NCBI GenBank assembly: GCA_023231475.1
Contig: JALJEE010000990.1
Coordinates: 1 to 45,467, forward strand
Origin: Seison nebaliae
Lineage: Eukaryota
Direction: 5' to 3'
Length of the DNA stretch: 45,467 nucleotides
The notes below the pieces were generated by a model. It made no database searches, had not been told where the DNA came from, and saw only the letters and a program-made list of their open reading frames with translations. Below, in pieces: positions 3,201-45,211 of this stretch. Position 1 is the stretch's first letter, and every line of letters starts with the position of its first letter. Position numbers and translations under genes: made by a program.

Positions 3201-4291
3201 CATCATGAACGGAATGAGTTCGATCAATTCCAATTACATCAATCAACATCGAATAATCGATTGGGAAGACCAGAAGAGAACTTATTATCTGAGAAAATTT
3301 ATCAGCCAATTAATATTCCAGAAAACTTATTTAAAGAAGTTGGTGAATCGGTACAATTGTTTATTACTAAACAATGTGAATCGACCGTCCATCATAAAGA
3401 GAATGATGAAATTATTCAAAGTGTCAATTTATCTGTCGATCAATCAGTTCAATCATCAGAAAGAATTCCTGGATGGATTTTGGAAGAAAGTCAACAAACT
3501 GACAAATTATTAGAAGCCAGAAAACTTTCATCTAATTGTGCTAGTCCAAACTCGTCAACCACCGAATTAGAACATTCAAATTCTTCAATAGTTTTCGTTC
3601 CAAAAAAACCAAAAAAAAAATTAAAGAACTCCGAAACGAAAACCATCCAGACGACTAAGAAGAGTAGTGAAAGTGGTAAAAGTAATGTCAGTAAACCGCT
3701 ACCTCCAATTAAGAAGAAGAATTTAGGAAATGGTAATCAACGCAAACAAATAGATTGTATCAGAAAACCATCATTCAGGAATAAATTTCTACCGGGCAAA
3801 TCAATTGCACGCTTCAAACAAAACGTTAGAATTTTAAATATTTTTTGAAAAATTTATTTAATTTCTCAAATTATCGATGTTTATGAAAATAGACATTTAA
3901 TTCGAATAATAGTTTGACGATGGAGAAATGGAATAAATCGACGTCTGGACCAACTTATGACGAATTAGCACTACAAAATAAATTGGCTAACGAACAAATT
4001 ATCCATTTGAAAGTTTGTAAATATTTTTCAAATTTCAATTATACTTATTTTCAGGAACAACTCTCTCAACATAATCGACAAATTTCTTCTTCTTCAATTG
4101 CCCTATCGACTGGAAATGATAACGAAGTAATAAATAAATCTCTCTTACCGGATATTGTGAAACATGAGCAGAATGACACGGCACTTGTTCGCCATTTGCA
4201 TTCGGCCAATTCAGTGAAAAGTTCAGCAGAAACAAATAAAGATGGAATCAATTCCTCGAAAGTCAAATCGACAACATGTAATTTCTTATAA
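234..4291 (+). CDS. Nek8/Nek9-like (NIMA-related) Ser/Thr kinase with N-terminal extension, RCC1 repeats and C-terminal CaaX-like motif (~1315 aa)
   Basis: Kinase motifs GRGSFGTA, VVLK, HFDIKTEN, DFG and GTAPYMSPE, followed by RCC1-like repeats (FAWGYNKHGE, YTWGDNTYGQLG). Exons 234-3824, 3893-4012 and 4055-4291 join in frame through GTT..AG introns 3825-3892 and 4013-4054. Ends KSTTCNFL*. Confidence 0.88.
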
Positions 4292-4366
4292 ATTGTGATG
4301 TCCCCCAATTTTGTATTTCCTTTTCTCTCCCAAAGTATTCGATCATTATTCTCCTACACAATTTTT

Positions 4367-4783
4367 TCATTTATACGGATCGTGCCACGGTCGACTATCA
4401 ACCGCATTAAGGATCCATTTTTTTACTCTACCCAATTGACTTTCATCTAATTCATTATAATCGATGGAATTCCTCTCCAAAAATGAATTTAGAACTTCTA
4501 AATCTTCGCCATTCTCACTATCCGTATGAGTTGTCGTAGTTGGTGTTAACGTTACTTCGGCATAAATATATTCATATTCGTACATCACTTCTGGAGGTGG
4601 TCGACTTGACAGTGGAACAACTGTCCCATGTGATTCTAGATGTTCTTCTTGACTTTCTTCCTCTTTTATTGTTTTTTGTTTTCGACGAATTCTCAGACAT
4701 TGTACACACTGAACTAAAGTGAAGGTTGAAAGAATGATGAGGAATAATATAATCGATAAAATGAATTGAATTGAAAAGAACAT
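4367..4783 (-). CDS. Small single-pass membrane protein of unknown function (138 aa)
   Basis: ATG-started intronless ORF with an N-terminal hydrophobic helix, then CVQC plus basic stop-transfer (RIRRK) and an acidic tail. Convergent with the Nek gene. Confidence 0.6.
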   Translation of the reverse strand: MFFSIQFILSIILFLIILSTFTLVQCVQCLRIRRKQKTIKEEESQEEHLESHGTVVPLSSRPPPEVMYEYEYIYAEVTLTPTTTTHTDSENGEDLEVLNSFLERNSIDYNELDESQLGRVKKWILNAVDSRPWHDPYK

Positions 4784-7700
4784 CGAAAAAAATGAAAAGT
4801 CTCTATAAATTGCTTTATATTTCTTAAAATTTCACATTTCAAATCGAAATAAATTTCAATTCATTTCCAATAAAATATCGAAACGGATTTCAGTTTTTTT
4901 TCATATTTTAAGAAAACCAAATTTATATTTTCCCTTTGATACTGACACATTATGAGATTTTAATGTCTTTTTCATTCTATTCAATTGGACGAACTAAACT
5001 GAAATTTTAATATAATTTTTGAACAAAAAAATTTCCAGCAAGTCAGATAGTTTGAAAGAAAAAGAGGTAGTTGAGTATCTTTCCGTTTGAGTTTTTTGTA
5101 GGAAATGTGAGATTGTTTTTGGAAGACGAATAGGAATGACGACATATTATATAAAGGAAAGTAATAAATATTTAAATGATTGATGAATTACAAGATAGAG
5201 AACGGTGAAGGACTTGTACTGTTGATAATTATGTGGAATTATTTAGAGAAATTACATGTCATTCATGAAAATGGGGATGATTGAAAAAATAAACAAATAT
5301 AATTTGCGCATGTTTGACGATATTGTATTTAGTTGATAGCAGTTCGATAAGTTAAGTTGCGTTGCATTGTTTCCATGCAGTCCTTTATCGACATGTAATT
5401 CATGTAATTATATTGCATCCTCATATAAATTGATAAAATAAATATGTAACAAATGTAGGGGGAAGACAATGGAGGACGACTATCAAAATCGGTGATAAAT
5501 AGACACTAACGAGTCAACATGACAATTTAGTCACGAAATCGCCGATATTCGTATTGGAGCGAATCGATATAGAATATACGGTAAGTTAGTAATGAAGAGA
5601 AAGTGGGAGAGTGGGCAGTTTGGGTGAGATGGTGCGGAGAGAAGTGCTGGTGGAAGAATAATGAAGTTTGATGACAACAATCGTCGTCGTACTAAATGAA
5701 AGAATGTCAAAAATTGTGATCATCAATGAATATTATTGGATATGAATATTCTTTCTTCCGTCGAGGTAGATGTCGTGCATTGAGTGAAGAAGTAGCCAGA
5801 GAAGTTGTTGACGACTTGGTAAGTTCGAGGGGATAAGGAATAGTATGAAATGGAAGAAGGGGGGACAATGATTATAATGAAGTTGAACACCATCATGATG
5901 ATGATCATCATCATTTATATTATTCAATAAAATAATAAAAAATGATGGTTGTTGACAGCCATTAGAACGATAATGATGATAGAAATACTGAAACAGAATG
6001 TTCAACTTAACTTAACAAGGAGAAGAAATGTAATAACAATAATTCTGATGACGTTGAATCGTGATACAGAATTAACAATCGTATAATGTTATGGAAGTGT
6101 GTGTGCTAGAGACTTCTCGCCTCATCTTCCTCCTATCAGTTGAGGTGCATTCTCCCTTCTTTACACAAATGCACTGCCATTTCCCTCTTATGGACACAAG
6201 TTATTTCATCTTCTTTCGACGTCGATGTTCTGGCAGTGCAACTTCACAATTTATCTCACGATATTTAACTATCTGAACAATCGAGTAAGAAAGATGGGGA
6301 AGAAGGAAAAAAACCGATTAAATGACGAAATGCCCATGAATTATATTCCTCCTTTGCATTTGTTGCTGATATGTAACTAACACTACCTTTTATTCTCTCA
6401 AGAGCTTCCTCCAATCTCCCTCCTTCCACACAACAACGGCAAGAGTTTATCTAGTCATTCCTCCCCGCCCAATGAAGATTGATGGAGGAGAATTTTCTGA
6501 TCTGAAGTTTTCCACAATACAAAATCTTTTCACTCTTATTCTCTCGATTCATGTTCTTCTCGCCCCTTCTTCCCAACAATCATTCTCTCCCAACCATTCC
6601 TCTTGTTATTCTTCCGCTTATTGGTGGACAGAAAAATAAGAGGATAAGCGCTTATTAAACACACAGCAGAAAATATTTATGTTCCATATTTCCCACTCGT
6701 TCATGAGTGAAAGGTAAAGTTACTGTTAAGTACTTGTTATGTGTTATGTTATTGTGTGATAGAAAAATGGAGCCAGAAAGAAGAAAATGGAAGTATTTAA
6801 AAAAGAGAATTCAAAAAGAAAAAATAAATTAGAATTACTTATCTTTATTCCGATTTTCTCTAATGAACAAGTCATAGCAGTGTGAGAAGTGAAGAAAGAA
6901 GTTTGAAGACTAATAATTTGCCGTTCGTCATTTGTTTTGAACTCTCTCGTATTTTTCATTAGTAGCAGAAATTAAAGTTTCTTTTACATATTCCTCACTC
7001 ACATCGACGACAAGTGAAGTGTTTTATTGGAAATTGGGTAAGTATTATTTTGTTGAATAATCAGCTTTCGATGGAATATAGTTCGATTCTGAAAGATCTA
7101 CTCGTCGAATCAGTCGGTGAGAATATGGTATAATAAGAAATTATTATTATAATTCACCTCGTGTGAATTTCACTCGAATGACATTCTCCTATTGAAATTG
7201 TGTTCACAGTCATTTCCAATCTAGCCGGGGATAGCTTTCATCTCCTTTCCTACTATTATTTCTTTCCACACATTCTCCTACCTGCCTCCGACGTAAATGA
7301 TATGGATTTGTCGATTTCCTGCCGAAATGCTGAGTTCGTATGTGAATATATATATGTTTGAATTCAATTAATGCCTACTTACGTAATTTATAGTTAAGGT
7401 AATGCAAGATAATGCATATGCAATTAGACCATTATCTTATTGTAAAACTGCTTCACCCCTCAAATTATACAATGAGGCAATGGCGATGTATTATCACCAT
7501 TCTATTATTTAGCGGAATGTCGATCAATCTTTACACTCCAACCGTCTTCCAACTATATTCAGCAATATTTCAACTTTCCTTATCTAATCAATCAAATCAC
7601 TTTTCTCATTTCACGTCAAATCAACTAATCATATTTTAGTGGACAAACACTATAATTATTTTAATCCATGTTCGCCCAAATTTTCTGCCCACTTAAACCT

Positions 7701-9079: not shown

Positions 9080-9118
9080 ACACACACACAAACACACAAA
9101 CACACACACACACACATA
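9080..9118. repeat. Imperfect (CA)n microsatellite
   Basis: acacacacaaacacacaaacacacacacacacac read directly. Confidence 0.85.
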
Positions 9119-10076: not shown

Positions 10077-10145
10077 ATGGAAGAAAATGAAAATGATACG
10101 GAACTCGGTCAAATTAATACACAAATCAACGAAGTTCAAGATGAA
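10077..10145 (+). CDS. Distal SNAP-25-type first coding exon (MEENENDTELGQINTQINEVQDE)
   Basis: ATG at 10077, 23 codons, phase-0 donor GTTAGT at 10146. The peptide matches the SNAP-25 N-terminal pattern that precedes SLESTRRM, and the phase fits acceptors at 14623 and 16342. Confidence 0.72.
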
Positions 10146-13100
10146 GTTAGTGGAAACATTTTTTCTAAAACGGAAATAACATGAAAATTTCAAAAAACCA
10201 AATTAATGAGAATTGAGGAATAGATTAAGAAATTATTGATTTTTTTGTTTTTAATTTTAACAACTTTATGAGAAAGAGAATTGGAGAAGAAATGCTTATG
10301 CTCATGAATTCCCAATTTACTAATAGGAAATATAAAGGAAAAATATTTTTTTATCGATTTTACGTATTTCTGCATGATGAATTGTGGACATCCAACGGGA
10401 AATTAACAGTTTAATTTTCTTCTTGAAATATTGTGAGATGTAACTGGACTTAGCATGAAGTGGAAGAGGAAATAAAAATTTAATCTTATTTTCCTGGAAT
10501 AGACGGTCGAATTGACATTGAGAAAGAAGATTGATGGAAATAGATATAAAGATTTATTATTTGAACTAATCTTCTTTTTTTTACTATTCGATTCTCTCGT
10601 ATCTTCCTGATTGATTTGAGGAATGGATCGGTAATGAATTTATTGGTTGAGGAAGTTAATTGTCAGATTGTTAATTGGAAAATAGAATGAGAAAAAAAGA
10701 AGAAATTTCCTTTTGGATCATTCAACAAATGGAATGATTATGTAATAAATGAATAAATGCTACAGATAGGAAAGTTGATTGAGACAATGCAAATAAAAGT
10801 GGAAAGTAGGAGAGTTATTTGACTTCATTAATATTGTTGTTATTGTTATTGGTTAATATCTGAAAGAAATTTGTGCGAATTTCTATGTACCTACTTTTGA
10901 TTATCATATAAAATGGAGTGGACGTCGGAAATGAAGAATGCAATGAGTATGTGGATGAATCGAATAACATTATAATAACTAGTAGAGATGATTCTCTCTA
11001 TTAACAATTCTCGTTTCTTCTTTAATTCGTCTTTATTTCTATTATTGATTCGTAGCACTCCATACTTATTTTTCCGTTTACTCTTTTTCATGGAAATTGG
11101 AAAGTTTGCAGCAGAATTAGATGACATTCATTTCAATTCGTTCTATTCATCCTTCTATAATTTTCTTCTTTTTACGTAAAATTTCCTTATGCATTCCCCA
11201 GCACCGACATATGCATGAAATTGGTGATTGGCGATGTATAAATGGAAGAAATAATCGTCATTGCTGTGATGCTTCTTTTTCAATGACATTGGTCGAAATA
11301 AAAAGAAAAACATGAGTCAAAATCATTTAGACTTTACATGCAGAAATAAGAAGAATAGATGGAAAGAATAGAACGAAAATTTTTATTTATCATTCGCTCA
11401 ATGCATAATATCATCGATAGTTCTATTTCTTTTCTTCTCACCATATTCCTCCATTATTTATTCTCCTTCTTTCCATCCATCATCTCCTTCATTCGACAAT
11501 TTTTTCCGTTTTGGTTTCTGAAGGAAATTAAACTTATTGTTTATTCCTTTCGATTCCTGTTTATTCCATCGACAGTAAAATAATCGGAATTCATATAATT
11601 CTTCTCCATATGAAATCGAACAAAATTTTTTACAGTAGAAGAAACTTAAAATTATTAATATGACAAAGTTGCCATGACGTGGAGAGAGACGTCCATTCAT
11701 AAACATCGTAATTATTACGATAATTATGAATATTGTGCATAGTCTGTGCATAGAATTCATTTATCTAATAATTTTTATTGTCTACATTTTTCTTCACGAT
11801 AAATAACTTTCTTACTTTCTCTCATTTCTCGCAAGAAAAGGACTTTGGTGAAATGAACTACACTTTTAATTATTCGATCTTTCTTATTGTACTTCGACCA
11901 TCCCCTCACATCTCCTCCAAACATTTTGCTCTGTATTCTCCCAATTTGAGTGCGATCTCATCGAACACCCAAAATATATGTGGACATCATTTTTATGACG
12001 AAGAATTTTCTCATTCCATTCCACAAATCGCCTACAGAAATACATAAAATTATTATTCCTTATTGTCATTTTAATTCTATGGGAAACCGTTGTTTAATGA
12101 TTCCCGTGCGTTCAAAAATAGTCTGACTTCGATATTTCCGTTTTTCTTCAGGTATGCTAAGTCGACAATTCCTCCTGTTTTTTTTGTCTTCCAATTATCC
12201 CTATGGGATGTTTTTGTGAAAAAACAAAAATGTTTTTGTCATCAACAGGCAACATCATCATGATGATGATCATCATAATTCTGTATGATGTTGAGTTTTC
12301 GATGAATAGATAAAAGAAACATCAAACTCCTTCTTTTCTTGATGTTGCACATTAATTAATTTCCATACGTTTCCGATATTCTATCGGATCATTTCAATCA
12401 TTCTTCATATTAGTCTCATCAATGTCAATCAGGAGACGATGTTTTCATATACATGTATCTCCAGAATTATGGACGAAACAATAAGAAGAAATTATGTTTT
12501 CCTTTAAATTTTCTATAATCATATCATTCTTCTTCTACTTTCCTTATGAACTAGAGCATCAGTATCAGTGTCTCAAGGGAAGGAAGTAGAAGGAAAAAGT
12601 GTCTTTTAATTTATTCAACTCCTTTTGCGTCGAGCAAAACTTCCACATAATTAACTACTCAATATCATCATAATGTTATATCGCTTTCGCCATCGTACAG
12701 TTCATATCATATTTCATATTGACAGGATTCATGTTGGTGATATAAAAAAATTAGCGCGCAACATAAGAAGATATTATATCTATTTTTATTCATCTCTTGT
12801 TCTTTTTTGTTGAAGAGATAGCTGTATGTCATCACACTATTCCCATTACCTGAATTTGCATTCGATACATGATGGAAATCTAATAAATAATCTACTGATG
12901 AATTCTACGTTTGATGAATTCAGAAAACTCTCACTGACTTTCCTCTCCAAAACTTTAAGATAAATAGAATCTCAAATTCTATTTGCCAGTTATTCTCATA
13001 TAATTCCATCTAATATCTTTCAGATTCTTTTCGAACTCGAACATTCCCTCTGTTATTCATTACATTAATTCTTTTTAAACTTTCCATAAGTTTTAATATT

Positions 13101-14344
13101 GGAAATTTGGAATGAATACGGAATAAAAAAAATAAAAGAATTCTTTCTTTCTACAGTTGACATCGAGGAAGGATATATCGATAGAATCAATTTACTATTT
13201 GTGCATTCTTTGTGCATTTATTGTGCAAATATGAAAAAGGAAGAAACTTATCAAATATAATTTATCGAGAAAGATAGATTCATTTATTTATTATAATTGT
13301 CTAATTATTGTGATTATTTTCGTTTGTTGGTTGTCGTAGTTATGAGCGAAATATATTAGTTCAATATCGTCCTTCGTCAACATTATCACTGTAAATTATT
13401 CTCATGTGACGAATGTCCACTTTGTTAGAGATGTTCGGAAAAAGAAAACTATATTCTTCCTGTTTATCATTCCATTAATTATTTTCTCGTTATTCGATCC
13501 ATTGTTAATTCCCTTCCATTCCATTCATCATAATCGATTTCATATAAATTTATTGATAGTTTTTCTCGTACAATTTTTTTTATAAATATTTGTTCCCCAC
13601 TTCATCATCTTATTCTTCTCTTGCACTCCTTCCAATCGTTCGAACGATTCTTATATAAATTAACATGATTTTGTCTAGGATGTGAATGGACATGTACGTA
13701 TGTAGGAGAAGAAATTATCATAAAAATATCTAATCATTTATTCATCTTCTTCATCCCAATCTCGTTCAATTGACAAAAAGCTATTCAGTTCGAGAGAAGA
13801 TTTTATTATTCCATCTCCCTTCTATCCAATTCTCTTACTCTCCAATATTTATAATATATATTCATTATTATTCCTCCTCATATTTTGGAGCATTCCCTCC
13901 TCTTTCTCCTCCTCAATCGACGAGGAAATTTAGGTTTGGATTATTTCCACGGAAATTTCCGTCATTAGACTAATGTGTGCACCTGTAATTATGTACACGA
14001 GAATATTATTTGAGGATCAATCAGATAAATTATATATGTGCTATTTTATATATTTTTCAAGAATACTCTCCGACACAAACCTAATAATTTCCATTCATTT
14101 ATCCATCAGTCAGTTATTCAATCATTTCTTATCACTTTTTCCGATACATCTCATCATTTTTGATAATATCGTTAAGTCTTCTTTTTATTAAATTATTTTT
14201 CCTTTTTTCTTTAATTCTCTCGTTTTTTTTTCCTCTTAATTTCTCCTTTTAAATTATCGTTATTCTATCGTGGAAAACAGGAAGGAAATAAATTCTCTCT
14301 AGAGTTCCCTCTCGATATTTTCCCTTTTAAAACACCACAACGAT

Positions 14345-15434
14345 ATGGCATCGTTTTTTAACGCGATGCGCGGGGAAGATCCCGAAGAAGTGAAACGTTT
14401 AGCAGAAGAGGCTGAACTCGAGAAACGTTACACTGAAGATGCAGAAGGACGTCCATTGACAGAACAGGAGGGATTACAGCTTCGAATCGATGATCAAACG
14501 AACGAGGTTAACTGACTAAAATCAAACGATCTCCCAATCGAATTAGTAGTAGAGAATAGATTTACGAAAACCATCAACTATTTATTAAATATGAAAATTG
14601 ATTAAAAAATTTTTCTATTTCAGAGTTTGGAATCCACCCGTCGAATGCTTCAGTTATGTGAAGACGTTTAGTCATTTTTTTTCTTCTTCAAAATTCACTT
14701 TCGTCTTTTCACCATCTTTAGAGCAAAGAAGCTGGTATTCGTACTTTAGTTATGTTGGATGAACAAGGAGGTTTCCTCGTTTTTCGACAATTAGTCCATA
14801 TATATTTTTGAAAATGTTTTACAGATCAATTGGATCATATCAATGTAAATATGGATCAGATTAATACGGATATGCGAGACGCCGAAAAAAATTTGGAGGG
14901 TCTCGAAAAATGTTGTGGTCTTTGTGTGTTACCGTGGAAAAAGTTGGAGAATAAATTTTATTTTTGAAAATTTTCAATTTTGTTTAGGAGGAAAAATTTC
15001 GATAAAGATCCTGAATTTGCTGCGGCATTTAATCAAAATGAAGATGGCAAACTTGGTGGTGATCAACCGAGGAGGATTGTGGGCGATCAACAGGTTATTA
15101 ATTTAATTTCATGGAAAAATCTTTTTTGTAAATTTTCACGTCGAAATGGGCGGTAAGGGTTTTATCACGAGAGTAACAAATGACGACCGCGAAGACGAAA
15201 TGGAGAAGAATGTGACGGATGTAAATAGTATGATAGGAAATTTGAGGAATATGGCCGTAGATATGAGTACAGAAATCGATTCTCAGAATTCGATTATCAA
15301 ACAAATCAATGTGAAAGTTTGCACCATATTCACTTTTCATGTTCTTATGAAATTTCGAATAATTTCAGGCTAATGCAAATGAAGCTCGAATTACAGAAGC
15401 GAATAAACGTGCAAATGTTCTTTTGAAGAAATAG
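14345..15434 (+). CDS. SNAP25: SNAP-25 (Qbc SNARE), conserved copy
   Basis: Exons 14345-14506, 14624-14665 ([14 protein letters not shown]), 14722-14770 ([16 protein letters not shown]), 14825-14942 (..[10 protein letters not shown]), 14988-15093, 15140(or 15158)-15316 ([21 protein letters not shown]) and 15369-15434. All phases are compatible. Confidence 0.95.
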
Positions 15435-16342
15435 ATGCTTGAAATAAATTAATGATACAATACAATAATTATAAATGAATAAATATCATACAACGACATT
15501 GAAACAGTTTACCGAAAAGTGAATTTGAAGAAAAAGAAAATTTCGAAAATTTTGTGCACGAAATTTTCAAAAGTTCCTTAAACAACAACAACAACAACAA
15601 CAATATAAACAACAAGAATAATAATCATCATAATAATCGCGACGATATGATAGTTTGAAGACTTCTTTGACTACTCTCAATTTCTTATTGAAAATCTACC
15701 GTCGGATTACTGAATTTATTCAATTTTACTGATTATTGTTTATCGAAACTCTATTCCTTTAATTTTTTTTTATCATTTCACATCATCTTTCTTTTCATTC
15801 TTTTTAATCTTTTTTCTTTGGAATGTTATCAAAATATGATGAACTTTCACGATGATAATTATAATGAGAGTGATGATTGATAAGTGATGGATGGATAGAT
15901 GAATGGATGAATGAATGGAGAGAAGACACAGTGAAGAATTTCTATTATTATTATAATTATAATTATTATTATTATTATTATTCCAAATCATATATTCTTG
16001 CATCCTCTATTTTGCTAACGATCCATTCCTTGATTACTGCGATTTCACTTTCATTCTTTTTCATTTCGCAGTTCACACACTTCTAACAATCTTGTATAGG
16101 GCTTTCTTCACATATTCCTGTCGCATCACATCATCAAAAAACGGTATCAGACATTTTTCATCTGATCAGAAATCAAAGAATTTTTTTCATGAAATTTTAT
16201 CATTTCCCTTCTCATCCATTCTCATAGTCACCAAATCCACAATAATAATCATCATACAATGTATCCTTCATATTTTCAGTTTATGCAAAGTTCATTAAAA
16301 AATAATTTTCGAAAATTTTAATTATTTTCCTCCACTTTTCAG

Positions 16343-17166
16343 CAAGTTCAAGCTACTAGAAATATGGTGAATTTTACTTATGCAGTTTCAGCTTTTTCTT
16401 TCTTTCCACATCATTCTCATCTTCCTCCTCCTCCTCCTCCTCCTCCCAAAAGAGTTACAATAAAGGCATAGACATCGGTAATACATTGTACCAACATAGA
16501 GGTTCAACTTAAGATCAATTCTTGATAAAAAAATAAGTCGATAAAATTTTGAACAATAGAGAAATTGACTAATATTGAAGGCAATATGTCGAAGATGGTG
16601 GAGGATATGAAAGTGGCTGAGGATGACATGCAGGAACTACAAAGAGGTTGCTGTTCGAAATTTTGTAGAGTTTTGTGCATTAAGTTACAAGAATAATTCA
16701 TGGAAATTACTAAATAAAAATTTCTCCATGTTTAGAGTTTGTGGTTGTGTCTTTTCCAAAGATGATCGTATGAGTTTAGGTTCCAGTAGTCATAACAGCG
16801 AAACATATGCAGGAGCAACAGAAGAAATAGTTTATTAAAAATTTTAAAAAGTAATTAAATTTTTCCAATTAAAAGATGCCGAAAAAAGGGAAATTTACAC
16901 AAAGGACACCAAACACAGCTGGCTCGGCTGAGAAGTTGATCGCTGGTAATCTTGTAGAAGTGAATCATATGTTGAAGAATTTGAAAGATATGGCATTGGA
17001 ATTTAGTGAAGAATTAGATGATCAGAACAATGTGATAGAATCGATAAATGCTCAAGTTTCTATCTTCTATTAATGTAATTGAATTATGAAATTTTAGTCG
17101 ACAAAAACTACGACGCAATTGAAAGGAATAGCAGATAAACAGAAACGATTATTGAAGAAACAATAA
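16343..17166 (+). CDS. Divergent tandem SNAP-25 paralog (first coding exon not found locally)
   Basis: Exons 16343-16384, 16453-16501, 16560-16683, 16736-16829, 16876-17055 and 17098-17166. Intron phases are the same as in the upstream SNAP-25 and the first two exon lengths are identical (42, 49 nt). Has a Cys cluster and Qc helix NLKDMALEFSEELDDQN. Confidence 0.85.
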
Positions 17167-17203
17167 AATTATTAATTTTTTTATTTAATTAACTTATTTT
17201 ATT

Positions 17204-17863
17204 TCATTTCCAAAATAACACAATTATACTGATAAATAAATAAAAGAAATGATACTTAGGTATTTTGGATGAAGTGGATCCCAAGAGAAATTCACGAGTT
17301 AAACTACAATTAAATCTCGCACCTTCTTTCCTTATCTTTTGCAACATTCTCAATTGTTCTTCAATCACCAAAAACTGATAAAGACTACAATCATTCACTC
17401 TTCGAAACCAACATCGAAAAAACGCTCTTAATGGAAGACATAATTCCGACCGTTTCTCTTTCACCACCAGATGTTGTTCACAATAACTTTCCATATCTTT
17501 CATTATCTCTTTTGTACATCTTCGTTTCGAATGGATAGAATCAACACTTAATTGTTTACATAATACCTTCCATTCCCTGAAACTAGCCCGAGCATTTAAT
17601 ATCACTTCCAATCCTTTCGTTGTAAGAACGTCACATTGCATCTCATCAATGGCAAATGTCAATTTTCTTAAATTACTACCAGCCATCTCACAATTCACTT
17701 GCATATCGAATGCTTTCGATTTTTTGATTCGATCAACCTCTTTGATAAAGATCTTGTCGATACGCTTTACGTCGCAAATTGGAAATTCGTCTTTCTCTTT
17801 CTCCTTGCCATTCGCGATGGAAATTATAATTGAAAAGATGAAAATTTTTAATTCGATTAACAT
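17204..17863 (-). CDS. Cys-rich secreted/surface protein, possibly GPI-anchored (219 aa)
   Basis: Intronless ORF with a signal-peptide-like N-terminus (..IISIANG), about 10 spaced Cys, and a Ser-rich spacer followed by a C-terminal hydrophobic tail. Confidence 0.7.
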   Translation of the reverse strand: MLIELKIFIFSIIISIANGKEKEKDEFPICDVKRIDKIFIKEVDRIKKSKAFDMQVNCEMAGSNLRKLTFAIDEMQCDVLTTKGLEVILNARASFREWKVLCKQLSVDSIHSKRRCTKEIMKDMESYCEQHLVVKEKRSELCLPLRAFFRCWFRRVNDCSLYQFLVIEEQLRMLQKIRKEGARFNCSLTREFLLGSTSSKIPKYHFFYLFISIIVLFWK

Positions 17864-17987
17864 TTTCTTTCCTTCCCCACAATTGAACTATAAAAGGAAA
17901 TTTATTTTTCGAAAATTAATTAGAGAAATTGACAAAAAAAAAGAAAATTAAATGGAAAAAATAGTAAAAAAAAAAAAAAGAGATATG

Positions 17988-19065
17988 TCATTTGATCGAA
18001 CTAATGGCGAATGGTCCGAACTTCTCCTTAAACCTTCCATACATCTTCGATTTGACCGCTTTAGCACGACTCAATGTTGGGCTTATAAGAGGAGTTTGAT
18101 TGATTTTTGATCGAAACGTACGTCCCGCAGCAAACTTTTTTCCTTTAGGTATACTACCCGTTTTCTGAGATAATGATGTTTGTGGTGAACCGAGTGAACG
18201 TAATCGTTTGAATAATTTCGGTCCTTTCGTCGTTTGTTTCTTTGGGAGTTTCTTACATGTACATTTCTGACCAGGTTGACAACAAGATTTACTGTTCTTC
18301 TTTTTCATTTTTTTCTTTCGACGTGGCGACGGACTACGTGATGGACTCGAATAATTCTCTCTAAATGTAACTGCTGTTTTTCGAGAAAAAAGTTCTGATA
18401 CTCCAACATCACCTCGTTCAGATGGTCGAGCGATAGATTCATAGAAATATTCTCCTCCATCAATCGTCCAAGCAACATGATATGAGAAAACTGAAAATTA
18501 AAATAAGATAAAGATAAAATTGAAAGAAAATAAACAAAGTACATCAATTCCATTCGTTGCGGTTGGAGAAGCACACCAAACGAAAAAATAACATTTGAAA
18601 CCCCAATAAAACGGTAGATTGATATCCGATACAGGTTGATGAGAGTATTCGAGAAGAATAAATAAAATGTAAATAAACCAATATAATGACCATTGCCGTT
18701 TACGAGTAATACCTGTTGTATTAGTAAAACTAAAAAATTTTTAAAATAAATTTAAATTTTCTCTATAGTTTTAAAATAACGCCAAAAGAAGTGGATATAA
18801 TGGTAGAACGATACAATTGCAAATGAAAATTTTATATTTACAGAATAAAAATATGTTAATCGCTACGAAATTGATGACTGGAGAGAATGGAATGAATGAA
18901 ATTGAGGAAGAATATAAAGTAACTCATCAATAATACTTTCTCTGACAGACCAACCATCTCCCCTACACATTGTATAACGGGATTCTTCGAAATTATCGAA
19001 GTACGAAGCCATGGACTATTATAGTCTGAATTCGATAATAGACTATATCTTTGTTGTCCAAACAT
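17988..19065 (-). CDS. REEP/DP1/Yop1 (TB2/DP1/HVA22) family ER-shaping protein with basic C-terminal tail (~311 aa)
   Basis: Exons 19065-18924, 18877-18781, 18729-18536 and 18490-17988 splice in frame (936 nt). Product reads ICNCIVLPLYP..RQWSLYWFIY..LPFYWGFKCYFFVWCASP..NG, the family signature. The ORF track shows only fragments. Confidence 0.8.
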
Positions 19066-19539: not shown

Positions 19540-21384
19540 TTAAGCTGCTTTCCAATAACTGAAATCGATGTCGTTAAATTGTTCACAGTTAATCCGTTTA
19601 TTGTGTTTAGGATCAGCTTGAAGGAATGGATTGAGTTGCATGAACAACATCGATTTCATATTACGACACATGAGATTAGCTAATGATGTAGTTTGTTTAA
19701 TGGTCCGTAATTGTCCACTTTGGAATTTGATTGGATCATCTGATGTTAAATAAAAGAATCGATCACCATATTTGAGATCAGCAAACTGTTTCCCGATGAT
19801 ACAAGCGAATGTCGGTCCGACATTAGCCCCCGGTAATTTCGATTCAGCTAAGCCACCAGTAAATAGATCGATATCTCTCGGCGAATGATATAAAGTTCGA
19901 AGACGTTCGATTCGAATTGATGGAATATATCGAGAGAGATCGGCCCAATTCACTTCGACTTTCGGTGAGAGAATTGTTCCTTTAGTCTCACAATAATGTC
20001 GATATACAACATATGACGGTAAACCGTGGTCACGACCACGAGCAATATTTAATGCAGCGATATCGAAAGAAACGGCACCGGGAGAGAACTCGAATAAATG
20101 ATCTGTCATTTCTTCCGTAATTTTCGGATCGACTTGCATCGATGGGAGATTCATCGAATCTCGAACACAACTATCCATATCAGTATCTTGTCGAACATCA
20201 GCCACACGGAAATAATAATTTCTCAATCGTTTAATCGAATGAGGAATTAAACGATAAAAAGCATCAGCTTTCCCCAAATTCGATGGAATCATCGAATGAC
20301 CAAAACGGAAAGCAGCAGTAGAAAACGCGTTGGCTATTGATGGATTTACGTCTTCGTCATAAAAATAATTTTCTTCATCCGAATAAAGACCATAAGATGA
20401 CATGATATCTTTACCTAGAATGAGCGGAAGGAAATTGTTGTATGTGATATGTTGGAGTTGTGCTATAATGATTCTTCTCGTTTCCTGAAATGTCGTTTCA
20501 TCGGACCATTTGGGATTCATTCCTTGAAGTAATCCAGCAATTCGATTATGTTCCCGAAGGAAGAGAGTATGAAGTGAAACTAGGAGAGGTTGAGTATTGA
20601 CACGATTGTCACCAGCTGCGAAACAATGAACATTTTTTGGTTTACTTTTATCGATACATCCCATCGTATCGTCATGTGGTAACATTTGATTATCCGACGC
20701 TTTCAATTTACCATCTTTCATTGTTCGTAAACTTATTTGAATTGGTAATGTCGATCCATAAATTTGAGAACCGTCGATAAATGAAGTAATTCCATTCACT
20801 TGTTCTCTCATTTGTCTCGGACATTGTTCGCCAAGTCTCGCTGTTGCTGATCGGACGAAATTGAAACAATCTTGTTTACCTTTCAATTTATCATCATCGT
20901 CAATGAATAGTGGATAACATTCGGGATGTGTAAATCGCGAACATCGACAATCAATCGATCCTCCATTCTCATCACGACTCATTAATGTCGTTGTAATATC
21001 ATGATCGAGAAATTGTCCGAAATTCATTAACATCGTCGTATATCGATTATCAGCTACATCACGTCCAATCGAATGAAATCGTCGACTAATCAATCTGGGT
21101 GATGGAAGAAACCATCCATCAGATGAAGTCTCACGAAATGCATCTAATCGATTATGACGATCATAATCTGCTTCTACATATCGTTTAAACGGAACATTCG
21201 CTGCTCCCCAATATGGTACGTGGAGATTGTTACAACCACCATCAGCCGAACGATATGGATAATCACCGTTACATTGAACGTTCAGATTGAAATCACAACC
21301 GATAAACTGATCACGAGGAAATGAATAGACGGAGAAGATAATGAAATTTAATAGAGAGAATAATTGAAGAAGAATCATGTTCAT
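19540..21384 (-). CDS. Animal heme peroxidase (peroxinectin/chorion peroxidase-like), secreted, intronless
   Basis: Motifs YRSADGGCNN, GQFLDHD (distal His), GDNRVN (distal Arg), AFRFGHS (proximal His), RGRDHG and GDRFFY. First ATG is at 21384 (the ORF track starts at TTG 21402), followed by a signal peptide. Confidence 0.93.
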   Translation of the reverse strand: MNMILLQLFSLLNFIIFSVYSFPRDQFIGCDFNLNVQCNGDYPYRSADGGCNNLHVPYWGAANVPFKRYVEADYDRHNRLDAFRETSSDGWFLPSPRLISRRFHSIGRDVADNRYTTMLMNFGQFLDHDITTTLMSRDENGGSIDCRCSRFTHPECYPLFIDDDDKLKGKQDCFNFVRSATARLGEQCPRQMREQVNGITSFIDGSQIYGSTLPIQISLRTMKDGKLKASDNQMLPHDDTMGCIDKSKPKNVHCFAAGDNRVNTQPLLVSLHTLFLREHNRIAGLLQGMNPKWSDETTFQETRRIIIAQLQHITYNNFLPLILGKDIMSSYGLYSDEENYFYDEDVNPSIANAFSTAAFRFGHSMIPSNLGKADAFYRLIPHSIKRLRNYYFRVADVRQDTDMDSCVRDSMNLPSMQVDPKITEEMTDHLFEFSPGAVSFDIAALNIARGRDHGLPSYVVYRHYCETKGTILSPKVEVNWADLSRYIPSIRIERLRTLYHSPRDIDLFTGGLAESKLPGANVGPTFACIIGKQFADLKYGDRFFYLTSDDPIKFQSGQLRTIKQTTSLANLMCRNMKSMLFMQLNPFLQADPKHNKRINCEQFNDIDFSYWKAA

Positions 21385-21633
21385 GAAAATTGAATTTTCC
21401 AATGATTTTATTTTTAGTTTATGAAAAGTTTAAGAATTATTTTAATACGCTCGAAGAAACGGCAACATGTAAAAATCTCAATTATTTTCTAAATTTCCGT
21501 TTCTAACTACCATGTACCACAATCACTGTCATTTCTCTCCAGAAATTATCTTACAATTTCTCTAAAATTCTTTCTCTTCATATTTAATCGTTTAATTTTC
21601 TGACAGGAAATGTAGGAAGTATTGAAAATAACT

Positions 21634-21962: not shown

Positions 21963-23172
21963 ATGACTAAAATTTTTGGAATAGAATTCGCTCCTCTCAT
22001 CATACCTTGGCGTCGACGGTTACAAACGCTTTGTATTCTCTATGTTGGAATTTGTCTCTCTTCCTCTCTCTCTCAATTCTTCCCAGTATGTTTTATGTTT
22101 CGTCGTTGTTGGATTTCTAGCGACATTTGTCTTCTTATATCTCCTCTTTACCAAATATTATTATGTGACATTACTTTATCTATTGTGGTTGTATTATGAT
22201 TGGAAGAAAGAAGAGATGGGCGCCAGATATTCTTTTTTGACACGTCACACTAATTTATGGAAACATATTGTGTTAGATTAATTTAAATTCAATTTGTTCT
22301 TTATAAGTCCGTTCATTTTCTATAGAGATTATTTTCCAATAGATATCAATTTGGTTGAGGAATTGAACATTGACAAACATTACATTTTCGCATGTCATCC
22401 TCATGGGATTTTATGTTTTGCACCATTTGTGCATTTCGCTACTGATGCTACAAAATTCCATAAATTATATCCGAAAATTCCAACTCATTTAGTGACACTT
22501 CGATGTTATTTCAATTTCCCTTTACTTCGAGAATACATGTTAAGTGGAGGAATCATCTCATCCACACGCAATGCCATCAATTGTGTGTTGAAGAAAAAGG
22601 AAAGCATCGCACTTATTATCGGTGGTGCGAGAGAGTCGCTTGAAGCCAATCCCAAATCAACCAATCTCGCCATTAAACATCGAACTGGATTCATTCGAAT
22701 TGCCATAGAAAACAAGTTTCTCATTTCTAATTTCTCATTTCTGCTAATTGGAAGTTCCATAGTGTTCCAATTGTGCCAGTGTTTTCATTTGGAGAAAATG
22801 ATGTTTATAAACAAATCTCCGAATCTGAAAATCCATTTCTCCGACAAATTCAACTTTATCTCCTCAAAATTTTCCCATTTGCTTTACCCATTTTTCATGG
22901 ACGTGGAATTTTCAATTACACATTCGGAATCATACCGTTTCGACGACCCATTCATACTGTAGGTTTATAATTAGTTATTCAATTTAAACTTCTAAAACTA
23001 TCCTTCATAATATTCAGTTGGACGACCGATTAAATTCGAATCGGTGAAAAATCCATCAAAGAAAATCATCAAACAATTCCAAGAAGAATATTTCATTCAA
23101 TTGAATGAATTGTTTGAGAGTCATAAACTTCAATATGGCTATGACAAAGAAGATCATTTGACGATATGTTAA
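21963..23172 (+). CDS. DGAT2/MOGAT family acylglycerol acyltransferase (~336 aa)
   Basis: Exons 21963-22043, 22087-22271, 22326-22715, 22763-22962 and 23018-23172. Motifs FAPLIIPWRRRLQT, DYFP, HPHG, GGARE, VPVFSFGEND, PIFHGRG and VVGRPI. Confidence 0.93.
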
Positions 23173-24086: not shown

Positions 24087-24977
24087 TCATTTTTTGTCAT
24101 GTTGAATAATATTCAACATTTTCGCCATCAAATGATTCTGACCATCACCATCACCATCATCGGTTGGAGAAATAATGGTATCGTCATAATCCAAATGTTT
24201 ATTCATTTGGGTTTTCGTCGATGCACTTTTGGGAACGTTGGGATTATTGGAAGAATTGTCATCACTCTTCTTGTTGTTGTTGTGACTGGAAGTGACGGGA
24301 GTGGTTGACGGAGGATCGCCAACAACATCTGATGGATCTAATAAAAGATCGTTAGATGAATGTCGACCAGAACCTGGTGGTTGATGCATATGATCAACAT
24401 CACAAGGATATTCATGATTATAATCATAAAAACTACCACCATCATCTTCACAAATACTCATTCGCATATTAGATGCGATTACATCATCTTCATCTTCCTC
24501 TTCATCATCATCATCTCGTTGACTTTGATACATTTCATCTTTGACTTGTAATGTAAGAGAAGTAGATTTACATCGACTTCCTGCATCTGATTCATTGGAT
24601 AATAAACCATGATCATTTGCATTCGTACCGTTACCACGCGAATTAGTAACATCCATTAAACTTCTACTTTTCGTATATCGATAAGACGTTAAGAGATCAG
24701 TCTCTATCGCTGAATCTTTCATTGGTCGATCATGAATCAAATATCCACTATCGTTAGGACTCTCATCAGCTCCCTGATCGTCACTGTTATTGTTATTATT
24801 GTCACTGTTCAATTGATTGAGATTGTTGGATAATAAATAAATTTTATGTCTATCCATATTCTGTATTTTATTCCTTCGATTAACATCATCATTTTCATTT
24901 GAATTGATCACATTCGTCTTTTCCGATTGACCATCTGGTAAATGATCCGATGTCAACAAATGTGTATGTTGTGGAAC

Positions 24978-25015
<38 letters not shown>

Positions 25016-38100: not shown

Positions 38101-41032
38101 GAGAAAGAGATAAATTCGATTGATCAAAAATCATCAGAAAATCATCAGCAAAATCATCAAATACATGACTCATTCAGTTATTATAACGAGATGACAAGAA
38201 CGAAAATTGAATTATTACAATTAACATATTCAACTCCCATTTCACAACGTCAACAACAACAACAACAACAACAATCTCAACAAAATCGAGTATTAATTTT
38301 TATCGATTCCATTTTATCGATGGGAATAATTTTGATGAATTCGAAGTTATTAGGAAATAAAATAAAATTTCCAATCGATTCATTAATTGAATTCCTTTTG
38401 GAATTAATCTCTTTTTATCGTTGTAATGAATTTACTTATCGTCTACTCATCGAATTAGCTACTCAACATCAACTTTATATGAGAAGTTCGATGATAATGA
38501 AACGATTAATGGAAATTAATGGAACAATATCAGCTGTCACTTATGCAAGATATAATCAATTGATGGCAGAATGGAAATCGGATGAATCTGAATCATTTTG
38601 TGGTTCATCTACTCGAATGAATTGTGGGAATAGTGGAGAGCAATCGATTGGCGAATCATCAGGAATTGAGTCAACAATAAATCGGATTTCTGAAGAAGGA
38701 AAACCATCGTCAACATTATCGATATCAGAAAATTTTGTAGAGAATCCAAATCAAATTAAAATGGGAAATAATCATCCAATAATTTATGAGAATGGTGTCA
38801 ATTCACGAATTGGGAAAAATGATGAGAATTCTTCAATTACTCCTAATTGTCATGAGAATTTTCAGAATGATCATTCAAATTCTTTTCAAAATTCTCCTCA
38901 ATCTAATAATTGTGAAATTGAAGATAATGATCAATTTCCAAGAGGTGATGGTGAGAAATCATCATCACATGAAAGTGGTATAGAGGAAACGATAAAATTC
39001 GATTTAAACCATGATGTCATTGTACGTGAAGAAGATGTTGTTGTTGTTGTTGATGAGGAGGAGGAGGAGAAATTGAAGATTAATAAAGTTCAAAATAAAG
39101 ATGATGGTGAAATGTCATTAAATGATGATATATTATCATCATCATTGAAGAATTCGTTGAGAAAAAATGATCGAACGGAAATCTCTTTAAAATCTTATCA
39201 ATGTATGGCAACTCAAACTGAAGAGGAAGAAAAGATGAATTCAAAAAAGATTTCACATTCCAAATCGACAACACTCGATACAAATGCCTCATTCGTTTCT
39301 CTTCATCGATCAACTAATTTGATGAATACTAAAGTGAAATTGAAATTTATGTCTCCATCTAAACGGTTAATGGAATCACTCACTCCCAAAAGTATGGTCA
39401 TGTCAAGTAAAAGTATCTTCCAAACGACTAAATCGTGGTTGACTCCCAATCGCTCTTCAACTACTTCGAATAGTCCTAAAACAAAAAAAAATTTAAAAAA
39501 CAATTCTTCTGATACCATTTCCATTTCATCTACTCCCATCCAAACGAAACAAATTGATGAGCTCAATCAACGACGTACATCACTTCATGCATCCATCAAT
39601 TCATTAAGTAACGGTTCCGATTCCGTTGGGATGGATTTAGCGGCATCTATTAATAGTAATTCGTTAGTGAAAGACGATGTCACATTTCCCAAACGAGTCG
39701 AACAATTATTCGAAAAATATTTCGAATCATCTTTAGAAAGTAAATCGTTTGAAATGGATAATTTCTCATTGAATTGTGATGAGAAGAAAGATGATAATAA
39801 TGTCGATGATCCGATATTGGACAATCCGATAAATTCCCCTAAAGAATTTATGAAAACTTTAACAAAGAATGAGAATTTAGATGGGAAATCATCAACGATG
39901 AGAAAAAAAAAGATAAATTTTATCGTTTGTATCAAATGTGATCGTTGTGGTAATTTGTATTATGATCTCGATATTTTTGGAATGTGGCAATTGGGAAAAG
40001 ATGTTTTAGAAATCGAATGTGAACATTGTGCTGATAATTATCAGAAAGAGAAAGATTCTCTCATGACCACATCATTTTCAGCACTCGATATCGGAGCATT
40101 ATCCATGTCTCATGGATCGTTGATTCCTCGATTGACAGTGGAGATGATGGATGAGGAAGAAATGGAGAATTATGAGAGTTCTCATGTAATTCTCTTATCG
40201 CCTATACATTTATTGAAGAAATTAGAGAAATTAATTGAAACGGAAAGTAACATCTATGAACATCGTGCTTATCTTTTTTGGAATTTAGTCTATTATTTGC
40301 GACGATGTAATTTCCATCATCTCATCGATTTCTCACCATTCATTCACCATATACTTCCTCATATGAAGAATGAACAAAATTCTTCTAATGATTCAACTAA
40401 CTCGTCATCTTCATCATTTCATTCTTCAATTGAACAATTGTTCAATCACCCCACAACCGACAACGACCATAAAGTGGATGATCCGGAGAAGAATGAATAT
40501 GAATTTCAATTGAAAATGGATATCGATAATTTTCATCCATCAGAAGCATTACCGCTCTACGTTTTATGGCAACAGAAAAGTTGGAGTTTTTTCTTCAAAA
40601 ATTAACTTGTAAATTTTTCATGTAAATTTAGACAAATATTATGAAGGCTTAGAATTAGACGATCTCGATCACATTATCGTGAGTGGATGTCGAATGAAGA
40701 ATCTTATCCAAATCGTCGAACAGTTACAAATGAAGAATATGACTGTGGCATTCCAATTATATTGTATGGAACTGAAGGAGAAACATGCACAACTCAGATG
40801 TAAGTTGAGAATGCCAATTTTCCGCGAATTCCAATTACTCTATATTCAACTGAACAATGAATTGAATGTGCAACTATATGAGAATACACACGACTTCTTC
40901 CACGATTACAAGACGGCCTATACCGCCAATTTTTCTAAATATATCGAGATCATTAAAAATAAAGATTATCGACCATCAAGTGTCATTTTGAATTGTTATT
41001 TTCGTTTTGGTCTTCAGGGATTCATCATATAA
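35142..41032 (+). CDS. DENND4: DENND4/CRAG-like Rab GEF (MABP + uDENN/cDENN/dDENN + C-terminal region, ~1710 aa)
   Basis: Exons 35142-36241, 36287-36415, 36769-36913, 36965-37372, 37630-40579 and 40632-41032, all in frame. Motifs [49 protein letters not shown] and [11 protein letters not shown]. Confidence 0.9.
36546..36750. repeat. AT-rich ~28-nt minisatellite (AAAATTTAATTTTTAATTTTTTTTCCT-like, ~7 copies) inside DENND4 intron 2
   Basis: Repeated units with variable T-run length read directly. They account for this intron being 353 nt. Confidence 0.85.
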
Positions 41033-42425: not shown

Positions 42426-43205
42426 TTAAATATATGATAGGAAAATTTGGTATCCTGTTGCAGTAACTAAAGGGTGACTAAAATAACAGTCTCCCCAGAA
42501 CTCTGTTAGAGCTTTGCCCATTTTTCGGAAAAGAGACCCATCCATTGATGTGCTACCATCGTTGTTACATTTTTTTAAACTACCACTATCAAAATCATTG
42601 TATATCTCTGCACCAACTTTCAGTTTGTTATTTGAATCGATATAACAACCACAATTTTTCGCAGTTCTATCTATTGGGTATCCATAGCCATTATGGGTGT
42701 AATTGAAAATTACTTCTAAACAAATTGGTTTTTCTTGGGTCATACTTTGCAGAATTGAAAGTCCGAGAAAGTAATTATCGTCCTGGTTAAAACCCTCATT
42801 ATACTGAGCTCCATTGTAAGTTCTGAAATTAATTATTTTTGCAAATAAAATTTTGTCTCCATCGATTTGTAGTGTATCAAGTTTTGAGATCAGTGGAAAG
42901 TATTCTGACAAAAGAAGTGTAGGTTTATAAAAATATTAGTTGTTTTAACCTTTCCTAATGAACATATTCTCATTCAAATCTTCCAAATTTGTTATAACAG
43001 AACCTGTGGTAGTATTCTCAAATCCCAAACATTGGTCAGATATAGCACATTTAAGTGCGAGACATTGAATATTGGGAATAATCATTAAAAATGTTTTAGT
43101 TGGTACAAAACGTAAAATTGTTTCTCCCACGTTACTTGAAATCAATTTAAATGATATGATAAATATTGTCAACAATAAATACCAATAGTTAATCTGTAAA
43201 AACAT
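42426..43205 (-). CDS. Secreted protein of unknown function with short PAN/apple-like Cys motif (~244 aa)
   Basis: Exons 43205-42950 and 42904-42426 are joined by a 45-nt GTTAAA..CAG phase-1 intron. Hydrophobic N-terminus and IQCLALKCAISDQCLGF motif. Confidence 0.65.
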
Positions 43206-44237
43206 TGTGATCACTGAATACGAGAAGTCGAATTTCGTTTAAAAATAAGTGTGAAAGAATATGGAAAACATTTAATCATTTTATAGAAATTTGGTTGCTA
43301 TGTAGGCAAATCTGTTGGCAAAAGTGAAACCGAAACTTGTTGCTCTTGGTAATATTCTGGTAAATTAAACTTTTCCTAAATATTCTTGCGCAGAAAAAAG
43401 TTCTATTTTCACTTAATAATTCCTAAATGTCCATATTACATACATTTTAAAATTCACATTTATTGTTGTGGAATAATTTGAATCTTGATATGACTTTCCT
43501 GGGAGACCAATTTGTAAGTCTACTGTGTCTACTTTTCTTAGAACTATTCAGAGTACTCTGTTTCTCCTCATTTCCTCAAATTTGGGAAAAATAAAATTCT
43601 AAAATAAATAAACTTAACAGTAAAGTTTTTTATGAAGTGGGTTTGGAGAGCATCTGGATGTCATACGAAGATGATAAAAAAAATGTAACTTATTCAGAAT
43701 TACAACAATAAAGAATAATTGATTAGTTCTTCATTCGAATAGGAAATAAGTCGACTAGGAAGCCTTGACGGCTTCCTATAGTTAACTGATAATGAGTTTG
43801 AAAACTCTGATAAATTCCATTGGCAAACCTATGAAGTCGTATGCTGGTATCTATATGGTGCTATATGCTTATATCTAAGTGATGGCTGGTATATAAGCAA
43901 ACAACCTCCGACCAATAATTAGATTATAAATGAGAAGAGAATTAAACCGTCTAAAAAGAATATCAAATCCAGAAATCGAAATGGTTCTTCATCTTCCTTC
44001 TCTGGTGAAGCTGTATCAGACTGTGTTAAAGAATATTTTTTGTGATATCATAAAAAACAAAAGAATATCAAATCTACATCAATAATATATGACGTTAACC
44101 GTCAAATAGATAACATATCAATAATCAACAACGTAGGTTTAATTTACCATAGTTGATTTTGTCCGAAATAGTCATTGCTTCTCTATATTAGACGAATTCG
44201 TTTGATTCCTACTGATATTCGTATATCAGTAAGTCAG

Positions 44238-44321
44238 GTTCGTAGAATGAAAATTCAAGTTCGTAAAATTAAAATTCAAGTTCGTATAATTAAAATTCAA
44301 GTTCGTAAAATGTAAATTCAA
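44238..44321. repeat. 21-nt tandem repeat (GTTCGTAAAATTAAAATTCAA-like) x4
   Basis: Four near-identical adjacent copies. Confidence 0.9.
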
Positions 44322-44827
44322 GTTTCTGAGATGAAATAAAGTGAGATGTTGATATCGACAAAACCCTAATTGTTTATTTAATCGACTGTAACAAGATCAT
44401 TTTTTTGACATTAAATAGAGTTTAATTAACATGGGCATATATTTAAAATGTTTTATGAGATTGGTATAGAATCTATAGTCTATAGTATAGACTCTATACT
44501 ATAGTCTCTGAGGGATCGCAAGAAAAAATGAAACTTTTGAAATCTTGGAGAAGAATATCGCGAGATAAATCGTAGTTGATAATTCTATTTGATTTGAGAA
44601 AATTATGAAATTTCCATATGATAATTTGTTGAAATTATAAAATTTGAATAATTCGATGGTTCAATTCCAACTGTGGAATATTAGCATAATTTTGATTTAT
44701 AAATAACATGATAAATCAAATAGGCGGAACAACAAGATATGTTACTGAGAAAATTAAAAGTTATCAACTATAAATAGAATGAAAATTTAACTTAAATTTT
44801 ATTACCTTATAATATTATTGAGGCAAA

Positions 44828-45211
44828 ATGAAGTTTTTATGCATCGTTCTTATTTCAATCTTCTGCATTTCAGCTGTTAGTAATTTAGAATGTTATTATA
44901 ATTATTCATTTATCTAATCCCGTTTTTTTGTAATTAGAACTGTACAAAATTGGTCTTTGCTCGTGACTTGTTGAGGATGTGCTCAAAAGTACGTGATGTT
45001 TTCGGTCCTTTCGATCCTGCTATAAAGCAAACTATGATAGTTCATAACAATATTTTTTACCATTTTTAATTATTTTTTTTCTTTAAAGGATTTGAAGATG
45101 TTCCCTAAACTATCATACACTAAGCAGTATGATATAGATAGAGCTCCTAGTTTCAAACACGCGTGTGCAGCAATCAACAGACTTTCTAAAACCACAAAGA
45201 TGCGTCGCTAA
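44828..45211 (+). CDS. Small secreted cationic peptide (90 aa, three exons)
   Basis: Exons 44828-44875 (signal peptide MKFLCIVLISIFCISA), 44938-45039 and 45089-45211, joined by phase-0 GTT..AG introns of 62 and 49 nt. AATAAA follows the stop. Absent from the ORF track. Confidence 0.72.

Follow-up and report, generated by a model that had tools for sequence, protein, structure and literature searches.

Introns of a genomic window of the marine rotifer Seison nebaliae all begin with GTT, suggesting a rewired donor signal

Seison nebaliae is a marine rotifer of the class Seisonidea whose host is the crustacean Nebalia (PMC8351084). We have analysed the way in which introns begin in one window of its genome, the whole 45,467-nucleotide (nt) stretch of contig JALJEE010000990.1 (31.5% GC). 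Gene models were built from open reading frames, Pfam matches and the sequence itself, and 36 introns were reconstructed in 11 genes on both strands, every gene being open from ATG to stop (Table 1). All of these introns start with GTT. The results concern a single window and 36 introns, with splicing inferred from DNA. Homolog searches recovered the deposited Seison proteins SNEBB_008753, SNEBB_008745 (two isoforms) and SNEBB_008746 from the window. Among the other genes, the one combining a kinase with RCC1 repeats is presumably NEK8/9-like, and we take the BSD-domain gene to be SYAP1-like and the uDENN/DENN/dDENN gene to be DENND4-like.

Table 1. Genes, introns and other features of the window. 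All listed introns have GTT donors; HMM, hidden Markov model; aa, amino acids.
Feature	Position	Strand	Introns	Support
Kinase + RCC1-repeat gene	234..4291	+	3825-3892, 4013-4054 (both GTT..AG)	Pfam, frame; no homology spanning the junctions
Kinase gene, exon 1 (very long)	234-3824	+		
SNAP-25, two alternative first exons	10077..15434	+	10146-14623, 14507-14623, 14666-14721, 14771-14824 (introns 1-4 of 7); 14943-14987, 15094-15157, 15317-15368	Deposited isoforms map exactly; non-Seison HMM; spliced aligner
SNAP-25 alternative first exons	10077-10145 / 14345-14506	+		Both in deposited isoforms
Divergent SNAP-25-like paralogue	16364..17166	+	16385-16452, 16502-16559, 16684-16735, 16830-16875, 17056-17097	Deposited protein maps exactly
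Unnamed 311-aa gene	17988..19065	-	Three of 45-51 nt, donors 18923, 18780, 18535	Frame, length, composition test
Peroxidase (very long exon/intronless class)	19540-21429	-		
DGAT2/MOGAT-family acyltransferase	21963..23172	+	22044-22086, 22272-22325, 22716-22762, 22963-23017	HMM of 43 homologs; Pfam DAGAT
Two-ARID-domain gene	24087..27417	-	25656-25598 (frame only), 25399-25335 (Pfam)	Pfam ARID, frame
BSD-domain gene	31246..32230	+	31528-31576, 31816-31879, 32021-32067	Pfam BSD for 31816; frame for the rest
Neutral sphingomyelinase	32717..34158	+	32849-32902, 32980-33023	Deposited protein maps exactly; HMM of 13 non-Seison homologs
uDENN/DENN/dDENN gene	35142..41032	+	36242-36286, 36416-36768, 36914-36964, 37373-37629, 40580-40631	Pfam DENN, frame
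DENN gene, tandem array	36540-36740	+		
DENN gene, exon 5 (very long)	37630-40579	+		
Unnamed 244-aa gene	42426..43205	-	42949-42905	Frame, composition test
Unnamed 90-aa gene, hydrophobic N-terminus	44828..45211	+	44876-44937, 45040-45088	Frame, composition test

The acceptors are AG in all models (TAG 18, CAG 13 and AAG 5; n=36), and 32 introns measure 42-68 nt, the others being 117, 257, 353 and 4478 nt long (median 52 nt). U12-type introns are marked by an RTATCC donor and a CCTTRAY branch point, and the 36 introns contain neither motif (0/36 each). The branch-like word CTRA occurs in 9/36 without a clear branch motif, and an all-against-all blastn comparison, in which an introner-type family was looked for, returned only the nested SNAP-25 pair and weak matches of 15-40 nt. 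These are ordinary GT-AG introns with U2-type ends, yet they lack the +3 purine of GTRAGT (0/36). With GTT at 36/36 donors, the share of GTT is at least 0.92 (one-sided 95% bound, n=36). Intron interiors are 50% T and their GTN trinucleotides are GTT in 19/38 cases, a background against which 36/36 has p ~1.5e-11. The original prediction had reported the same totals for donors, genes and strands; our own reconstruction reproduced them, the quoted donors read GTT at 10/10 coordinates, and a recount of G at +5 gave the same 11/36. It had also singled out two GTTAGT donors, and both were confirmed: one opens the 4478-nt distal intron of SNAP-25 (10146-14623), the other the 257-nt intron of the DENN gene (37373-37629).

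Around the fixed +3 the signal is weak. The bases counted over the 36 donors are A15 T14 C4 G3 at +4, A13 G11 C8 T4 at +5, T16 A14 at +6, A19 G8 at -1 and A25 at -2. Tested against phase-matched exon and intron backgrounds, A at -2 is enriched (25 against 13.1 expected, p 8e-5), as is G at +5 (11 against 1.9, p 2e-6), and T at +5 is depleted (4 against 17.9). Enrichment is mild for A at -1 (19 against 12.5, p 0.03) and weak for G at +7.

The junctions were placed without use of +3 in several ways. Sixteen are fixed by non-Seison homology, 21 if the deposited paralogue is included, and 15 by frame, length and composition only; the 16 are all GTT. In rankings of all frame-compatible GT/GC-AG pairs by HMMs from which Seison was left out, the GTT junction came first at 6/6 sites in SNAP-25 (37 non-Seison homologs), 2/2 in the sphingomyelinase and 4/4 in DGAT2. 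A profile-to-DNA spliced aligner, whose only rules are GT/GC-AG ends, also gave GTT at 6/6 SNAP-25 donors, the proximal donor at 14507 included. Pfam positions are continuous across the junctions at 36914 (DENN 129/131), 25399 (ARID 47/49) and 31816 (BSD 34/36), and DAGAT positions continue residue by residue over three DGAT2 junctions; a GTG at 22270 was rejected as a DGAT2 donor because it breaks the frame, the donor being 22272. Deposited proteins mapped with any ends allowed define 14 distinct introns, and the sole GT-AG placement of each is GTT; these models are not fully independent, since the gene finder behind them may have been trained on Seison. With +1 to +6 masked, a coding-versus-intron score chose GTT at 35/36 junctions, GC at one and GTA, GTG or GTC at none, and it agreed with the modelled donor in 33/36. 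The test is blind to +3 and not to position, since our own models set the centre of its candidate windows and its 52-nt length prior; on average, GTT makes up 59% of the GT candidates around a junction. Over 13800-18600, the main contigs of two DNA runs contain no other letters, skipped repeats apart, which makes an assembly error there unlikely. Of the four sequencing runs compared with this stretch, these two behaved as DNA and the other two gave no cover; intron-like joints did not show up, which has no bearing on expression.

Some features of the SNAP-25 region deserve separate mention. The two alternative first exons lie 4.2 kb apart, and the divergent paralogue stands in tandem downstream; the homolog search returned no non-Seison homologs for it. 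In one run, low-depth contigs show ~86-91% identity to 13935-14035 and 14367-14526, including the proximal SNAP-25 exon, and may belong to a second lineage, a paralogue or another organism. The deposited AAG acceptor of intron 15094-15157 removes ~6 linker residues that are present in all aligned homologs, and G-rich, exon-like sequence precedes the acceptor at 15157. A GT-AC alternative ending at 15139, after a T-rich tract, restores the ~6 residues (324.0 against 317.5 bits). Several non-canonical ends of this intron score similarly, and a non-canonical acceptor is possible.

Control donors were sought in a pool of 80 SNAP-25 loci from metagenome contigs, of which 27 were aligned (likely genomic or tree references; 17 in the run with narrower ranges); two were left out as near-duplicates (99% identical) of a third. 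Five of the genomic loci, with a GC content of 27-32%, are AT-rich and fall together with the bdelloid Didymodactylos (support 100/100). The same aligner read GTA 25, GTG 1 and GTT 0 at their 26 donors, which come from five related loci of one gene and are not independent; narrower ranges gave GTA 24/24. All non-duplicate controls together gave GTA 33, GTG 6, GTC 1, GCA 1 and GTT 0. The bdelloid intron interiors are 44% T, and the absence of GTT from loci so similarly AT-rich indicates that AT-richness is no explanation for the Seison donors. The 26 donors have G at -1 in 20, A at +3 in 25, A at +4 in 18 and G at +5 in 9. Seison has -1 G in 8/36 against these 20/26 (p 3e-5) and +4 T in 14/36 against 3/26 (p 0.02, a post hoc comparison of small samples). 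Five SNAP-25 intron positions (27/0, 41/0, 58/1, 97/2 and 191/0) are common to the window and the bdelloid-clade loci, with GTT in Seison and GTA in bdelloids, which indicates that ancestral introns were converted in place; at one position the Seison intron (15094-15157) is placed differently from the bdelloid one. To judge from these alignments, a near-fixed +3 and a weak +5 are common to Seison and bdelloids, and in Seison the fixed base has changed from A to T, the -1 G preference has been lost and +4 has moved toward T.

Taken together, the GTT signal is real and lineage-specific, and the splicing machinery is likely rewired to a different intron-start signal. The proposal that this lineage selects U at +3 is well supported, since homology-placed junctions, the +3-blind test and the AT-rich rotifer controls agree, and the comparison with related taxa that had been called for (0/26 GTT in bdelloid-clade SNAP-25) bears it out. 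By the rules of base pairing, +3 can be A or G when its partner is U, C or U when the partner is G, and U alone when the partner is A. GTA, GTG and GTC are all absent from the donors, GTC at 0/36 against ~21% expected if C were as good as T (p 2e-4), and we infer that the partner of +3 is an A. The most likely cause, put forward tentatively, would be a U1 small nuclear RNA (snRNA) with a matching A opposite +3, its pairing segment reading ACUAAC instead of ACUUAC. Pseudouridine 6 of U1 accepts A or G at +3, and an A in that place would accept only U, giving the all-or-none pattern. The +3 base meets this pseudouridine and later G44 of U6 (PMC8283771). As the signal is otherwise weak (-2 A, +5 G), short intron length and the 3' AG would probably help to define the intron. 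U6 probably lacks its N6-methyladenosine (m6A) mark, METTL16 being scored as missing, which may have relaxed +4 toward U and may allow G44 to tolerate +3 U. The conversion would have passed through a phase with both U1 forms.

We place the ACUAAC form of U1 first because of the precedent of Entamoeba, which the original prediction had not drawn on and in which GUUUGU(U) donors go with a co-evolved U1 (ACAAAC) and a typical U6 ACAGA (10.1101/2022.06.08.495308), because pairing in the normal register is enriched across the donor set (z 2.8, p 0.006; z 1.6 for an Entamoeba-type version with +4 U), and because A occupies +4 in 4/4 introns above 100 nt against 11/32 short ones (p 0.023, post hoc and from a small sample). 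A bulged-register U1 model scored z 1.9, below the normal register, and was not preferred. Pairing scores against decoy GTT sites did not tell the U1 variants apart, and an Rfam search for snRNAs, applied to the window only, returned nothing, either at the gathering threshold or with E relaxed to 1.

METTL16, the U6 methylase, is scored by BUSCO as missing in Seison alone of 25 syndermatans, the other 24 having it present, duplicated or fragmented, according to the supplement of PMC12256650. The same supplement scores U5-40K (also missing in one bdelloid) and LSm2 as missing, and SNRNP27 and most of the listed core factors as complete; rows for U1C, LUC7 and Prp8 were not found in its BUSCO table. 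As described in PMC11347140, METTL16 loss elsewhere favours AG//GU.

A number of points weigh against a changed U1, or set limits to the observation itself. The supplement of PMC12256650 leaves Seison without 356/954 BUSCOs, 76 of them its own losses, so the absence of METTL16 is weak evidence and serves only as a lead; its loss fits the drift at +4, not the loss of -1 G (8/36 against 20/26). Neither -1 G (8 against 6.1 expected), +4 A (15 against 11.4) nor +6 T (16 against 17.9) is enriched, so that a U1 helix would be short. Half of the donors (18/36) lack both -1 G and +5 G, which speaks against a strong U1 helix (compensation between the two, counts 1/7/10/18, p 0.39), and U5 and U6 account for -2 A and +5 G just as well. 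U1 is described as unchanged in donor-shifted Saccharomycotina (PMC10581693), in Giardia, Trichomonas, Micromonas and Thecamonas (10.1101/2022.06.08.495308) and in Fritillaria (10.1101/2025.08.15.670264). Introns 4013 and 36242 are in frame and stop-free, and their retention is possible. Upstream of the ARID gene, at 27492-27458 on the minus strand, a T-rich CAG acceptor has GTA as its nearest donor, giving an unmodelled 35-nt intron shorter than all modelled ones; GTT donors lie 243 and 288 nt upstream of this acceptor, and the site could be an exception to GTT, an intron of the 5' untranslated region or a trans-splice acceptor.

In a competing explanation the snRNAs would be canonical and +3 U would be imposed by changes in U1C, LUC7, Prp8 or SNRNP27, by loss of U6 m6A or by altered U1 pseudouridines. 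This is the usual finding: the +4 switches of Saccharomycotina track METTL16 and SNRNP27K with U1 and U6 unchanged (PMC10581693), Fritillaria keeps its U1 5' end and re-patterns m6A (10.1101/2025.08.15.670264), and Seison is scored without METTL16, U5-40K and LSm2. The cases described in these sources, however, shift +4 or relax specificity, and none imposes one +3 pyrimidine to the exclusion of A, G and C; with SNRNP27 and most listed core factors scored complete as well, we regard a purely protein or modification change as unlikely, if a serious competitor.

Slightly less probable is a changed U6 ACAGAGA box facing +3, with G44 replaced by A to form an A-U pair, the METTL16 target gone and U1 canonical or in a minor role. 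The contact of +3 A with U6 G44 is a non-canonical pair, described as necessary for the repositioning that follows branching (PMC8283771), and a check at the catalytic stage would give an invariant +3 with little else conserved. METTL16 is scored missing, and the U6 box of Cyanidioschyzon did change (PMC10581693). On the other hand, the same source gives ACAGA as invariant in 240 fungal species, and Entamoeba keeps it (10.1101/2022.06.08.495308). Invariance alone does not point to U6, given +3 A in 25/26 bdelloid donors, and U1 is the better fit for the preference of long introns for +4 A.

An invariant +3 U could also arise without any snRNA change, through a canonical U1 pairing one base over (+1) so that +3 U acts as +2 U. 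Such a register was reportedly described by Roca and Krainer in 2009 at rare human GUUAAGU sites, and the mild enrichment of A at -1 would suit it. It predicts G at +6, seen in 1/36, with G enriched at +5 instead; the shifted-register set scores only z 0.8 (p 0.23) and GTTAAG donors number 0/36, which makes it very improbable. The reading without any change, in which T-rich introns (50% T), mutation bias and an annotator picking GTT among GTs (59% of nearby candidates) produce the pattern at junctions known from DNA only, aided by blind-test windows and a length prior centred on our own models, is strongly disfavoured by GTT at 16/16 homology-placed junctions, by the same aligner finding none in 26 AT-rich bdelloid donors with 44% T interiors, by depletion of T at +5, which shows a donor region that is not simply T-rich, and by the agreement of the two DNA runs over 13800-18600.

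On balance we lean, by a little, to the broader view that the whole Seison intron set, old introns included, has been recoded from GTR to GTT through a core snRNA change (U1 position 6 or U6 G44) together with loss of U6 methylation, yielding for the major spliceosome a code orthogonal to the one other animals use, with alternative splicing retained. The favoured U1 change would touch one of the most conserved eukaryotic RNA sequences, to which both the U1 5' end and the U6 box belong. How one base of the splice site can be exchanged across thousands of introns already in place has yet to be explained, and in the literature covered the clear compensatory cases are amoebae. With a complete +3 switch in an animal that has introns, and GTA retained at the same positions by its near relatives, the question can be tested directly; the two Seison lineages and acanthocephalans could date the steps. 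Seison also separates the role of +3 at U1 from its role at U6, which bears on human +3 splice mutations and on engineered U1 therapy. Seison genes could be mis-predicted by gene finders that rely on generic animal donor models, and this may be relevant to the very high number of core genes missing from Seison.

Elsewhere in the window, the ARID gene has one intronless and one intron-split ARID domain with long Q/N/H runs around them, and the 353-nt intron of the DENN gene is mostly a tandem array of T-rich ~26-nt units. Very long exons and intronless genes (the peroxidase, exon 1 of the kinase gene and exon 5 of the DENN gene) adjoin genes rich in 45-60 nt introns, which suggests uneven intron loss.

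A full-text literature search, thin on subscription journals, turned up no account of splice signals in Seison, nor any of GTT-dominated donors in an animal. In the Seison genome paper (PMC8351084), 'splice' occurs once and 'snRNA' never, and its supplements contain no splice terms; splicing terms are absent from the main text of PMC12256650, Seison is not mentioned in PMC11347168, and PMC10639083 names it only in a supplement list. Seison lamin is described as alternatively spliced, without splice-site detail (PMC10125929). A change of this kind is known from Entamoeba; a switch at +3 only, in an animal, is apparently new and undescribed.

Entamoeba resembles Seison in a nearly invariant +3 U (GUUUGN in 96.9-98.5% there, GTT in 36/36 here) and in keeping GT-AG ends (10.1101/2022.06.08.495308). 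It differs in that +3, +4 and +5 are all fixed, whereas Seison fixes only +3 (GTTTG in 2/36, short of a strict GUUUGN), and in being an intron-poor protist, whereas Seison, an animal, has several introns in a gene as well as alternative first exons. The Saccharomycotina share a donor shift with METTL16 absent, from A to U at +4 with loss of METTL16/SNRNP27K, and Seison +4 leans to U relative to bdelloids; there, however, the shift lies at +4 and the +3 purine is kept, and SNRNP27 is scored complete in Seison (PMC10581693). Fritillaria borealis, in which a U2-type spliceosome handles non-canonical introns, is again an animal whose splice signals have changed throughout the genome and whose U6 m6A is gone, as is likely in Seison (10.1101/2025.08.15.670264). 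Its terminal dinucleotides are relaxed and diverse and its U1 is unchanged, whereas in Seison the ends are canonical and one inner position is strict.

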